NCBI GenBank assembly: GCA_964486045.1
Contig: CAZALK010000003.1
Location: 1-64,000 of the forward strand
Length of the DNA stretch: 64,000 nucleotides
Direction: 5' to 3'
Source: an uncultured archaeon
GTDB lineage: Archaea > Asgardarchaeota > Lokiarchaeia > Sigyniarchaeales > SOKP01
The position numbers and the translations under genes were made by a program. Below, piece after piece: positions 57,101-60,249 of the stretch. The notes below the pieces were generated by a model. It was given only the letters and a program-made list of their open reading frames with translations. It was not told where the DNA came from and did no database searches. Positions within the stretch are counted from its first letter, which is position 1, and each line of letters begins with the position of its first letter.

Positions 57101-59041
57101 GTGAAGATACAAAAGAAGATTACTCATAATATTGTTTCCGAGCAATTACCAAGTGATTATTATCTAAATGATGTTATTGCTGATAGTACTGATGCTTTAA
57201 TAAATGAAGGAATAGGAGATGCCATTGAGTGGGCTCAAGTTAGTTCGTTACCGAACAATCAAAGGAATTCAATAAATGAAGGTTTAATAAAGAAAACTTC
57301 TAAATGGGCTAAGGTTGCAAAAGTTGTAGGATTTTCCGGCCTGGCAGTTGCGGGGTTAGGGGTTACTGGGGGATTGGCTTCCGTATTTGGATTTTTGGGA
57401 GGGATTTCAGGCATTTTTGCTACAACTATTATGGGAACGACTGCCATGGTAAGAAATATTAATTCCTTCATAACTCCAGATTTATCATTTAGGAAATCTG
57501 TAAGAAAAACTAAAGCAATCTCCTTTATTTTGAAAAAAGGTTCAAAAGATAATATGATCGGGATTTACAGAGATAGAAGTGAAGTTCTTATTCATATTGC
57601 TAATAGACAAGAAAAATATATCAACCCCACTAATATAGATGATAAGATCAATAGCGGAGAATATAATGCTATTCAGCCTTATGAAAGTCGCCTTACTATA
57701 ATGACTCATTCCCATCATGAACTAATGAAAATCCATAATAAAAAATCTAGACAGTATAAAAATCGAGGTCTCTTTGGTGTTGTCTATTTAATTATTGACT
57801 GGGAAACCGGAAAACTAAAGGTTGGAAGGACTGAGACTTCATTAGGTACCAGAAAGTCGCAATATATCTCAGCAGCAATAAAACAGCTTAACAAAAAAGA
57901 TCCTATAACAGAAAGAATAAGGGAGTTAATAGCGATTAGAGGGAAGAAACTTGTGAGAAAAACCCTTGAGTGGATTCCAATTGAAGTAGTTTTAAGAACG
58001 GGAAGTTCTGATGGACATATCGCTCATGACCGAAAGCTTATTGAAAATTTAGAGCAATTATGGCAAAACAAATTAGACACTTCAGATCCTCGATATGGAT
58101 ATGACCAGACTTCTGGAGCTGCTGGTCCTCATGCCAGAAAAGCGAGTTACCCTCCCACTGCTGTTGAGATCACGTTACCGAGAGTATTTATTAATCCTCA
58201 CGAACTTCAAATACTTTTGGAGAAAGTATGTGATTTTAATCAAATGCTTACTGTTCTCTCTATTAAGAAAAATTATCTCGGAATTAATTCTAGAGATATC
58301 TATGAAAATATTAAATATCATTGGCCGTTCTTAGCAAGAGGATTAGACACCTTCACTCCCCAAAATAAGCTCCCAGTTTTATTAAAGAATGCAAGATATT
58401 ATTTCATAGCTCAAATAGTTAGTAATTATGTTGAAAATGGCTATGATGTTCTATCCGAAATTGCATTAACATTTCAATCTAAAGAGAATCCTTCTGGTGT
58501 ATCTAGGGAGACAATATCACGAGCTATTAAGCAAGAATTTGGGACTAATTCTTGGGCGGGTTTTCTCTCATTACATGGAACAAAGTTAACACCACAATCT
58601 ATAAAGCATCTTGACATCAGAGAATTTATAAATGTTGGCGGTAAGTCATTAGAAGATCACATAAAATTCACTTTATCTACTTTCATTATTAAAGGGCTAA
58701 GTGAAGCAGAAATTGTAGTTGAATTAAGAACACATAATTTTCATATCAGTTCTCTACCAGGTTTACAAAGGTATATCTACAAATTCTGGGGAAATTTGGC
58801 AAATGCAAGGAAAGTGTTGGTGGCTCCAATCTTGGCTTTAAGTTTTAAACTGGGCCATGATTCGACTCAGATAAGACGGGAGATGCCATTCTTTCAGAGA
58901 AGGGGTCCAGGGCTTAGCGCAGGAGATGTAGTACGAGCTTATTGCAAGCAGTGGTTTACCATAAATCCCACTCAAGCTAGGAGTATTCTGAGACTCAGAT
59001 CTTTAAGTGAATTTTTGAATCAAAATCTAAATGATCAGTAA
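57101..59041 (+). CDS. GIY-YIG nuclease with a Gly-rich hydrophobic N-terminal segment and C-terminal HTH-like repeats (possibly 5'-truncated)
   Basis: GVVYLI.D..TGKLKVGRT...R...Y...IEV...LEQLW......GYD at 57776-58105. Hydrophobic VVGFSGLAVAGLGVTGGLASVFGFLGGISGIF lies upstream of it. Confidence 0.8.
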   Translation: MKIQKKITHNIVSEQLPSDYYLNDVIADSTDALINEGIGDAIEWAQVSSLPNNQRNSINEGLIKKTSKWAKVAKVVGFSGLAVAGLGVTGGLASVFGFLGGISGIFATTIMGTTAMVRNINSFITPDLSFRKSVRKTKAISFILKKGSKDNMIGIYRDRSEVLIHIANRQEKYINPTNIDDKINSGEYNAIQPYESRLTIMTHSHHELMKIHNKKSRQYKNRGLFGVVYLIIDWETGKLKVGRTETSLGTRKSQYISAAIKQLNKKDPITERIRELIAIRGKKLVRKTLEWIPIEVVLRTGSSDGHIAHDRKLIENLEQLWQNKLDTSDPRYGYDQTSGAAGPHARKASYPPTAVEITLPRVFINPHELQILLEKVCDFNQMLTVLSIKKNYLGINSRDIYENIKYHWPFLARGLDTFTPQNKLPVLLKNARYYFIAQIVSNYVENGYDVLSEIALTFQSKENPSGVSRETISRAIKQEFGTNSWAGFLSLHGTKLTPQSIKHLDIREFINVGGKSLEDHIKFTLSTFIIKGLSEAEIVVELRTHNFHISSLPGLQRYIYKFWGNLANARKVLVAPILALSFKLGHDSTQIRREMPFFQRRGPGLSAGDVVRAYCKQWFTINPTQARSILRLRSLSEFLNQNLNDQ

Positions 59042-59145
59042 TTTACACCACCTTTAAAGTTTAAATACTTTAGTTTTTTTATTTATCAAGAAGATCGTAA
59101 TATTTAATATGTTTTATTATAGCAAAATAAAATAAGGTAATCTAG

Positions 59146-60249
59146 ATGGGAAAAAGTACTCCTTATATTATGGAAGGCGATGGGGAAGCAGATATTGAAT
59201 ATGACATAATTCAATTATTAGGATTAGACTGGTATAGCTATCTCAATGATGAGACAATTTTAAATAGACAGTTCTTAGAGTTAAATATGGAGAAAGTTTT
59301 AAATGAAGTGAAAGACCCGTCGGAAGATCCAGGTTATTTTCTAATTATTGGATATTTTATTCTGAAGACAGGAGCAGCTGTTTCTAATGCGCTCAAAAAT
59401 AAGGTTGCTGAGTCTACTAAGTGGGAATATGAAGAGACCATTTATCCTAGTAAAGAAATGGAAGAGGAGAGAAAAGTTATTCTTAAAGATTTACGGGATA
59501 AAATCCTAGACCATAGACCTGGTAGGATTACACGTTTAATTGAAGATGGTGGAGGTTATGCTCCCAAAATACTTTTTCAGGAAAAAGAATTAGTATCATT
59601 AATTGAAAAAACTTATTCACTTGAACAAATAAAAGACTTTTTTGCTAGAAAATTATCTACCAATATTTCAAAAGAAGATGTATTAGCGAATATAAAATGG
59701 TATTTTCGCATTAATTCTTATGACCTTTCTGAGGAAATCTTTAAACAAGCACAAAGAAAAATACTTAAGAAAGAATTTATAGAATTTATAGGTAAAGGTG
59801 TAAGAATTTTAGATGAGATGAACCAAAAACTTATCTCTCTTGGAAAACCCGATGAAGTTACAAGTAATGAGTTAGAAGAACTGGTAAAAGAATCCTTATC
59901 TGTTAAATCTTGGGAGGATGCTATAAAGAAACATGGGATTCCTTCAGAAGGATGGATGGATACGTATATCGAACAAGTATGTGGTATTGACACTGAAAAG
60001 TTTTCTGAAGAAGAAGAATTTGTCACTCGAGAAATGGTTGAGGTTCATTTTAGTGAGTTAGTTGAAATGGTTACTAGGTGGGGCAGTCCTAAAGGATATT
60101 ATAAACTTGGATTGCTTATTCTCGAAACAAGTGCTAGAATAACAGAAAACCTTCGAAAGGTTATTATTGAATTCACTAATGGTCTACAAGGTTTTGAGGA
60201 GAAATCGATACAAACGTTTCAAGATAAGATTCGAAGGTACAAATCCTAA
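59146..60249 (+). CDS. Acidic partner protein: repeat 1, a module shared with the upstream nuclease, repeat 2 (candidate immunity protein)
   Basis: Internal duplication GYFLIIGYFILKTGAAVSNALKNKV / GYYKLGLLILETSARITENLRKVI. The central segment aligns with nuclease aa 359-493. Confidence 0.8.
   Translation: MGKSTPYIMEGDGEADIEYDIIQLLGLDWYSYLNDETILNRQFLELNMEKVLNEVKDPSEDPGYFLIIGYFILKTGAAVSNALKNKVAESTKWEYEETIYPSKEMEEERKVILKDLRDKILDHRPGRITRLIEDGGGYAPKILFQEKELVSLIEKTYSLEQIKDFFARKLSTNISKEDVLANIKWYFRINSYDLSEEIFKQAQRKILKKEFIEFIGKGVRILDEMNQKLISLGKPDEVTSNELEELVKESLSVKSWEDAIKKHGIPSEGWMDTYIEQVCGIDTEKFSEEEEFVTREMVEVHFSELVEMVTRWGSPKGYYKLGLLILETSARITENLRKVIIEFTNGLQGFEEKSIQTFQDKIRRYKS

Follow-up and report, generated by a model that had tools for sequence, protein, structure and literature searches.

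Small acidic proteins that inhibit basic nucleases are well known from the colicin DNases with their Im proteins and from barnase with barstar, and the ribonuclease inhibitor is an example constructed of leucine-rich repeats (LRRs). Orphan pairs of a C-terminal toxin segment (CT) and its immunity gene are likewise known from the bacterial loci of contact-dependent inhibition (CDI) and of Rhs proteins, and their layout resembles that of the two genes discussed here, P0001 and P0002. These genes are located in the window, namely the whole analysed stretch of 64,000 nucleotides from contig CAZALK010000003.1 of an uncultured Asgard archaeon (Lokiarchaeia; Sigyniarchaeales). P0001 (57101..59041, + strand, GTG start) encodes a basic nuclease of 646 amino acids (aa), which is read as an orphan, or decapitated, C-terminal toxin cassette, and P0002 (59146..60249, +) encodes an acidic, immunity-like partner of 367 aa, both being taken from the list of open reading frames (ORFs). 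The survey of bacterial polymorphic toxin systems by Zhang et al. (2012, PMC3482391) includes tips of the URI/GIY-YIG type and immunity proteins made of LRRs; it calls such systems rare in archaea and gives the signature of the Tox-URI2 family as 'Y, KxG, [EQ]'. The reading that is favoured in this work, and that we hold to be reasonably probable, is that P0001 and P0002 form an orphan cassette of toxin tip and immunity gene, which belongs to a polymorphic-toxin-like system restricted to Asgard archaea of the Loki type.

An orphan cassette and its giant relatives

The affiliation of the cassette is disclosed by its longer relatives. P0005, a protein of 965 aa that is 83% identical to P0001, possesses 319 extra residues at the N-terminus, which constitute a membrane module, and this module matches the interior of four giant ORFs in the genome of the window with 44-50% identity. 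The giants are located on contigs C8 (1-28341, +, 9447 aa), C7 (1-28494, +, 9498 aa), C4 (281942-297646, -, 5235 aa) and C23 (293-6322, +, 2010 aa), and those of 9447 and 9498 aa are both cut by contig ends. Pairwise, the giants share 45-100% identity up to the motif LNDVIADSTDALI[ND]EGI.DA..WAQ.SS and 10-20% within about 50 residues after it; this junction motif is common to C8, C23 and P0001, and in the giants it sits where the identity collapses. The tips behind the motif are mutually unrelated in the four giants, one of which ends in a different type of GIY-YIG-like/helix-turn-helix (HTH) tip that is followed by a 165-aa protein with the acidic N-domain of the P0002 family, while the genes after the other giant tips encode an LRR protein or small proteins, one of them being convergent. 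Clustering of about 33 tips from 17 genomes gave at least 15 groups, and tips that are related have neighbour genes that are related as well. Sister tips behind the same junction are devoid of HTH arrays, and in genome G101 a GIY-YIG/HTH tip terminates an ORF of 13,767 aa. The membrane module was found only in the order of the window, in 17 of the 301 sampled genomes of the phylum and in 15 of 68 in its family. Two hallmarks of polymorphic toxin systems are present in this family, namely a sharp switch from body to tip at a conserved junction and a cognate neighbour gene for each tip type.

Two further observations concern the giants of this genome. The giants on C8 and C23 are 94-100% identical over approximately 700-800 residues, from about 950 to 250 residues before the junction, and then divergent; such near-identical long repeats could break assemblies and act as recombination substrates. 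A second orphan-like cassette is found at C13:8743-10749(-), where an ORF of 669 aa begins inside the final ~70 residues of the membrane module. Its tip is of another kind and includes a ubiquitin-like stretch (Pfam E 1e-4), and the next gene downstream (8105-8704, -) encodes a DUF2695 protein of 200 aa.

P0001 starts 21 residues before the junction. Its first part (57101..57163, +) corresponds to the last ~21 residues of the membrane module of the giants, residue 2 being aligned to residue 320 of P0005, and is succeeded by the junction motif LNDVIADSTDALINEGIGDAIEWAQVSS (57164..57247, +), which forms the border between conserved body and variable tip. Over 96 nt of the junction, the DNA agrees with that of the C8 giant gene at 88% of the positions, and over the following 21 nt at 19%. 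In the DNA alignment, homology to the longer relatives is lost upstream of ~57095, there is a stop four codons ahead of the GTG, and the ORF just upstream is an LRR fragment on the opposite strand; no giant body is present on the contig of the window. In a relative of 1683 aa, a tip of this type, which shares 41% identity with P0001 over 96% of residues 60-646, is preceded by the membrane module and no fewer than 770 other residues. Because of the start at the junction, the loss of upstream homology and the existence of this longer relative, P0001 and P0002 are a tip and partner cassette without a body, in other words an orphan tip cassette of a polymorphic-toxin-like family that has retained the junction.

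The two genes are separated by 104 bp on the same strand, and the gap has the identical length at locus L108. The orthologues of P0001 show 83, 69 and 71% identity, and word-indexed searches provided five homologues for P0001 and eight for P0002 (34-76% identity), the only named one being derived from a Lokiarchaeia metagenome-assembled genome. A profile search of 1.84 billion representative proteins gave 48 relatives, and the family is very narrow. Neither protein matches Pfam, NCBIfam (E up to 1), PADLOC or PHROGs, nothing useful was obtained from profile searches against PDB sequences, and a scan of the genome contigs for the partner yielded no match. For P0001, the ratio of nonsynonymous to synonymous substitution rates (dN/dS) is 0.28 over the whole gene in the comparison with L108; with the 83%-identical relative, it is 0.14 for the nuclease domain and 0.15 and 0.19 for the HTH modules. 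P0002 gave values of 0.2-0.34. Both genes are under purifying selection, and the cassette is not decaying.

On two metagenome contigs, close orthologues of P0001 and P0002 lie side by side with a gap of similar size, and on a third they are probably neighbours too. The acidic N-domain occurs in 32 of the 151 sampled genomes of the order, mostly in proteins of ~290 aa with C-terminal LRRs or in proteins of 140-165 aa with nothing attached. About 45 N-domain loci were fetched and scanned with hidden Markov models (HMMs) built here, and in ~14 further loci the domain adjoins diverged GIY-YIG/HTH tips, whose proteins are 25-30% identical to P0001. The tip immediately precedes the N-domain gene in the same orientation in G090, G075, G125, G058, G101, G148, G040, G082, G063 and on contig C8 of the own genome, is convergent (tail to tail) with the N-domain gene in three loci, and survives as a truncated remnant in three more. 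Pairs that retain no more than 25-40% identity thus still have the two genes side by side, in either of two orientations, and such recurring linkage gives strong genomic evidence for a relation of the toxin/immunity type. It is the acidic N-domain of the partner that accompanies the nuclease from locus to locus, and not the HTH copy of P0002; most partners have LRRs or nothing where the P0002 clade has this copy.

The original prediction, which was made from the sequence alone, had proposed a new nuclease/immunity system whose two genes should co-occur in other Asgard genomes. The co-occurrence is borne out by the further loci, and a nuclease with a dedicated acidic partner stands; a new and stand-alone system does not, as the pair belongs as an orphan cassette to a polymorphic-toxin-like family of giant proteins.

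Some other loci with N-domains or LRRs may be mentioned. In the own genome, a stand-alone N-domain protein of 174 aa (C5:249513-250046, -; L008) lies beside a gene for an RNA 3'-phosphate cyclase (RtcA-like), named from its N-terminal sequence only, and it looks like an orphan immunity gene because its orthologue in G062 (contig C28, L128) directly follows the tip of a giant ORF. A second family of LRR proteins, with a shared N-terminal domain (EEFWGHCSN...LAFPLL), was encountered at L118, L124, L143 and L144 (G000 C7, G058, G014 and G063, respectively), where it adjoins HNH-like or canonical GIY-YIG tips in either orientation.

The nuclease and its partner

AlphaFold models were built from family alignments for the core of P0001 (residues 190-646) and for P0002, and were compared with ~48,000 PDB chains by an exhaustive structural aligner. 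The core of P0001 reached a pLDDT (predicted local distance difference test) of 77, the nuclease region lying at ~65-80, while the model of P0002 (pLDDT 87, predicted TM-score 0.74) is nearly all helical. Whole-model Foldseek searches against PDB and BFVD returned helical-repeat noise only, and the domains were resolved solely by the exhaustive aligner. By these models, P0001 is predicted to be a GIY-YIG nuclease fold with two bipartite HTH modules, which together hold four HTH motifs.

Behind the junction, a Kyte-Doolittle scan reveals a glycine-rich hydrophobic hairpin (residues ~75-117; 57323..57451, +) and then a Lys/Arg-rich stretch; the hairpin region is conserved in P0005 and is the least constrained part of the gene (dN/dS 0.45). 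The GIY-YIG (URI) nuclease domain occupies residues 216-345 (57746..58135, +). Residues 225-334 superimpose on the catalytic domain of I-TevI (1ln0_A) with a moderate Z of 7.4 and a root-mean-square deviation of 2.5 over 88 of 92 residues, followed by T4 EndoII (Z 5.8) and PD-T4-3 (Z 5.2), and the three-stranded sheet with flanking helices typical of GIY-YIG domains is present in the model. Invariant in the family are Y229, K240-V-G242, R243, R251, E315, E318 and D335; of the catalytic positions, the first tyrosine would be Y229, the arginine R251 (with R243) and the glutamate E318 (with E315), while the second tyrosine reads K240 ('KVG') and the asparagine D335, where sister tips read GYN, in a mapping onto I-TevI by motif order only. 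No match was found to the GIY-YIG or Tox-URI models of Pfam and NCBIfam at E up to 1, and the sole sequence-level trace of the fold is a weak match of a relative to a PHROG homing endonuclease (E 4e-4).

HTH module A, which is shared with the partner, comprises residues 359-496 (58175..58588, +), and its model (residues 364-498) matches the DNA-binding domain of ToxT (6p7r_A) with Z 8.3 over 104 aligned residues. Module B (residues 497-646; 58589..59038, +) is modelled at residues 512-634 and matches the AraC/MarA-like folds of Rns, YesN-C, MarA, AraC, SoxS and AdpA with Z 6.7-9.1 over 96-109 residues. The seven-helix bipartite fold of the AraC/XylS type is recognised in both modules, although a Z below ~13 is not decisive alone for helical domains. 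P0001 does not match HTH_18 or HTH_AraC of Pfam, and among the homologues only weak matches to HTH_23 (P0009), GerE and HTH_7 were seen.

Two side observations are related to the nuclease. In P0009, a homologue of 518 aa, the membrane part is replaced by ~70 residues with an HExxH motif (LIHEIGH), possibly a zinc-peptidase remnant, for which Pfam gave no peptidase match. Elsewhere in the same genome, on the stretch C15:113932-117240 (L002), the ORF 1489-2142(+) encodes a 217-aa protein built of the same type of HTH unit (E 8e-6 to the nuclease profile), directly after two small ORFs that resemble ribosomal proteins S19 and L22 as named by eye; the nuclease-type HTH appears to have expanded in this lineage.

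P0002 is divided into three parts. The acidic helical N-domain (residues 1-135, pI 4.6; 59146..59550, +) is the hallmark of the partner family and belongs to no Pfam family. It is followed by the captured copy of HTH module A (residues 139-267; 59560..59946, +), which was recognised by homology and has seven helices in the model, as MarA-type domains do, and by a second, diverged acidic helical domain (residues 268-367; 59947..60246, +). The latter was recognised as a relative of the N-domain by BLASTP, residues 21-91 and 274-344 being 25% identical (E 2e-7), and by the N-domain HMM built here, which matches P0002 at 1-134 and 273-345. Compared with PDB chains, the acidic domains retrieved generic helical-repeat folds only (Z ~6). 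An assignment of the N-domain to DUF4259 (PF14078), which had been suggested as a language-model neighbour at 0.89 with 12% of members carrying the family, was dropped: Pfam gave no match at E up to 1, and a genome-wide search with the family misses P0002. A fusion of nuclease and partner genes in P0005 was also rejected, as this protein is longer at its N-terminus and not fused.

Most of what the original prediction had said about the two proteins is upheld by these results. Its shared module, placed at 58175-58579 (residues 359-493) of the nuclease ORF and 59560-59937 (residues 139-264) of the partner ORF, is recovered by a colinear BLASTP alignment of residues 360-493 with 140-264 (22% identity, E 3e-6 for the pair), and the profile comparison for which it had called, hhalign of module A against the partner family, gave 98.6% probability and E 9.4e-16 over 129 columns. 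The two diverged acidic repeats around the module and the acidic character of the partner (pI, the isoelectric point, of 4.9 and net charge of -17, vs 9.7 and +28 in the nuclease) were likewise recovered; its GIY-YIG assignment agrees with the I-TevI fold match and the invariant motif residues, though no Pfam or NCBIfam model does. What it had termed an HTH-like module could be sharpened to the bipartite HTH of AraC, MarA, Rns and ToxT, present as two modules (Z 8.3-9.1, 100-109 residues aligned).

The evolution of the copy departs from the prediction in two respects. The copy resembles module A rather than module B, is specific to the P0002 clade and is kept in all eight homologues, down to 34% identity. 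A co-variation of the shared module had been proposed as a check, but the copy of P0002 is not kept in step with the neighbouring nuclease and is only 19-24% identical to every nuclease module A. The basal partners P0017 and P0041 are nearest (31-34% and 24-29%) to the nuclease lineage of P0008, P0009 and P0018, and because of this closeness to another nuclease lineage the data point to a single old capture followed by faster divergence of the copy; concerted evolution of the two module copies was rejected in view of the uniform 19-24% identity and of these basal partners. It had also been suggested that the partner either heterodimerises with the nuclease through the shared module, which may be so, or occupies the same DNA sites. 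The net charge of the copy is 0 in P0002 and -7 to +2 across the family, compared with +2 to +7 for module A, and in the second recognition helix the nuclease-invariant T471 and R474 are aligned with E242, which is invariant in the partner family, and E245. Owing to this neutral or acidic charge and to the replacement of both residues by glutamate, the copy is unlikely to sit on the same DNA sites; protein-protein docking appears the likelier role, and autoregulatory DNA binding, as in antitoxins, may also occur.

As to the neighbouring genes, the 415-aa protein P0003 (60354-61601, +) bears a faint likeness to the RtcB family (NCBIfam E 0.02, residues ~209-261). Its membership in the system was rejected, as it is missing from the other nuclease-partner loci and a 78%-identical orthologue lies beside the gene of methionyl-tRNA synthetase (MetRS) in G140 without the partner gene, for which latter reason P0003 is assigned to the chromosomal backbone. 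Among the small ORFs upstream of the cassette are two LRR-only ORFs of 77 and 154 aa (53920-54153 and 56575-57039, both -), which may be pieces of LRR-type partner genes.

Proposed mechanism and competing explanations

The proposed mechanism builds on the family of proteins of 2,000 to more than 13,000 aa that end in the membrane module and the junction and carry exchangeable C-terminal tips, each with its own small gene. The giants would display or deliver these tips, and the junction would mediate tip exchange. The present tip, composed of the hydrophobic hairpin, the GIY-YIG nuclease and the two AraC/MarA-like bipartite HTH modules, would bind and cut DNA, and the acidic partner would bind the basic tip in the cytoplasm and block it. 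The immunity proteins of this GIY-YIG tip clade would have the acidic N-domain in common, and the variable rear part, which consists of LRRs in most relatives and of the HTH copy with the second acidic domain here, would add affinity or specificity. The HTH copy would most likely pack on the HTH region of the tip, as a pseudo-dimer or a decoy, and not on DNA. The orphan tip itself could be expressed, or could be kept as a silent reserve cassette that recombines into a giant gene through the junction. The more specific idea of immunity by module capture, in which a copy that lacks positive charge docks on, or stands in for, the DNA-binding region of the toxin within an Asgard giant-protein toxin system, is put forward tentatively and is in itself rather doubtful.

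Several explanations compete with the orphan-cassette reading. It seems unlikely that the pair is a cell-autonomous defence or suicide module, in which a membrane-tethered nuclease acts on invading or own DNA inside the cell and the partner is an inhibitor and sensor that releases it on a trigger, as in toxin-antitoxin or NLR-like systems. The Lys/Arg-rich stretch right after the last hydrophobic segment (residues 75-111) is compatible with a cytoplasmic tip, LRRs and HTH modules are typical sensor domains that replace each other on a constant N-domain, and the distribution is patchy, as expected for accessory genes; nevertheless, none of 5,027 defence-system models was matched, the locus is situated among housekeeping genes and gene fragments with no recognisable defence island, and the many unrelated tips behind one junction on the giants, each with a partner, would be left unexplained. 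The missing body, the GTG four codons after a stop, the opposite-strand LRR fragment directly upstream and the many N-domain genes that lack any nuclease would all suit a sub-case of the orphan-cassette reading, namely that the nuclease gene is a silent relic and the partner a working orphan immunity gene against the tips of neighbours. This sub-case is judged quite unlikely, because the 1.9-kb frame is intact, as is the G140 orthologue, a dN/dS of 0.14-0.19, obtained for the nuclease and HTH modules in the comparison with the 83%-identical relative, indicates constraint, and a relic would be expected to degrade if it did not serve as a reserve for recombination.

A free-standing GIY-YIG homing endonuclease of the I-TevI kind, spreading as selfish DNA with the partner as a regulator or a protector of target sites in the host, would agree with the domain architecture, the I-TevI fold match, the weak PHROG match in a relative and the patchy distribution within the genus. 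It is very unlikely, however, considering that the same tip types are fused behind the membrane module to proteins of 1,600 to 13,767 aa, that the synteny of G000 (the genome of the window) and G140 at 69% protein identity suggests vertical descent, that no intron, intein or repeated target site was seen, and that the partner family is common to tips which differ in their HTH arrays. Antagonists that resemble their targets occur among regulators, and a membrane-tethered regulator with two AraC-like modules, a degenerate, non-catalytic GIY-YIG domain and the partner as anti-factor would account for the two MarA-like modules (Z 8-9) and for the related module in the partner. The residues at the presumed GIY-YIG catalytic positions are invariant, however, constraint within the gene is strongest on the nuclease domain (dN/dS 0.14), and the sister tips behind the same junction carry no HTH arrays, which together make this explanation extremely improbable.

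The orphan-cassette reading has to contend with a number of observations as well. In G140, the orthologous nuclease occupies the same chromosomal place, as judged by the P0003 homologue and MetRS, and is accompanied by LRR genes that lack the N-domain, so that the partner is not strictly required there. A partner homologue of 52% identity (L107) has no upstream nuclease, and approximately two-thirds of the N-domain genes lie beside unrelated genes, such as those of tetratricopeptide repeat, radical SAM and DUF4240 proteins; N-domain genes of this kind could be orphan immunity genes, or else the domain could serve further functions. The tips of the other giants were classified by motif alone as two HNH-like and one PD-(D/E)xK-like, with none matched in Pfam. 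Since ~8,800 aa of the C8 giant body contain no Pfam domain, surface exposure of the giants is an assumption, and no secretion or delivery machinery and no known trafficking domain turned up, although no systematic search was made for them. The Kyte-Doolittle scan leaves the membrane topology of the tip ambiguous, and ~300 aa of HTH arrays behind a nuclease are unusual in a toxin tip and look rather like those of an enzyme with sequence specificity. Toxicity, neutralisation, export and delivery are candidate functions of this pair. The literature covered here, which did not extend to the main archaeal polymorphic-toxin survey, contained no description of Asgard giants with swappable tips.

Comparison with described systems

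Homing endonucleases of the I-TevI type share with P0001 the catalytic fold (Z 7.4, 88/92) and the order of a catalytic domain followed by HTH. In contrast, the tip discussed here stands behind the membrane module of the giants, has an acidic partner and shows no sign of homing, and it carries two bipartite AraC-like modules where I-TevI has a zinc finger and a single HTH. The seven-helix fold of the AraC/XylS DNA-binding domains (MarA, Rns, ToxT, SoxS) occurs twice in P0001 and, by homology, once in P0002, whereas a sequence-level membership in this family is lacking, the modules are attached to a nuclease instead of a ligand-sensing regulator, and the copy in the partner has no net positive charge. 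With the pairs of colicin DNase and Im and of barnase and barstar, the locus shares a small acidic protein encoded beside a basic nuclease, and the family of P0002 includes LRR versions; no sequence or fold relation to such inhibitors was found, the helical domains of P0002 matching generic helical repeats only (Z ~6).

No known prokaryotes are more closely related to eukaryotes than the Asgard archaea, which live in tight consortia and whose dealings with neighbours are, to our knowledge, almost unknown. Giants with exchangeable nuclease tips and matching partners would be a genetic signature of cell-to-cell antagonism or kin recognition in these organisms. Their orphan cassettes persist and are subject to purifying selection, and the junction might permit tips to be exchanged; one partner lineage has swapped its LRRs for a copy of the DNA-binding module of the toxin. 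If this copy takes part in neutralisation, it would offer a simple and testable case of immunity that evolves by capture of a toxin domain, and the nuclease core with its four HTH motifs may be a sequence-selective DNA cutter.

By analogy, the nearest described counterpart is found in the bacterial polymorphic toxin systems that combine Tox-URI tips with Imm-LRR immunity, as far as the covered parts of PMC3482391 describe them, and the lysine in place of the second tyrosine of P0001 ('KVG') echoes the Tox-URI2 signature given there. The likeness to the bacterial polymorphic toxins (CdiA-CT/CdiI, Rhs and MafB) extends to the large body, the short junction, the unrelated nuclease tips and the cognate small gene, and also to the displaced tip/immunity pair that keeps its junction. 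The differences lie in the Asgard archaeal host, in that, short of a systematic search, no trafficking domain, type of repeat, pre-toxin domain or secretion system of a known kind came to light, in a body, membrane module, junction and immunity N-domain that match no Pfam family, and in the ~300 aa of HTH arrays carried by the tip. Moreover, P0002 contains a homologue of a module of the toxin, an arrangement not met in the covered parts of PMC3482391. Against this background, what is particular to the present locus is its orphan state together with the captured HTH module in its partner.

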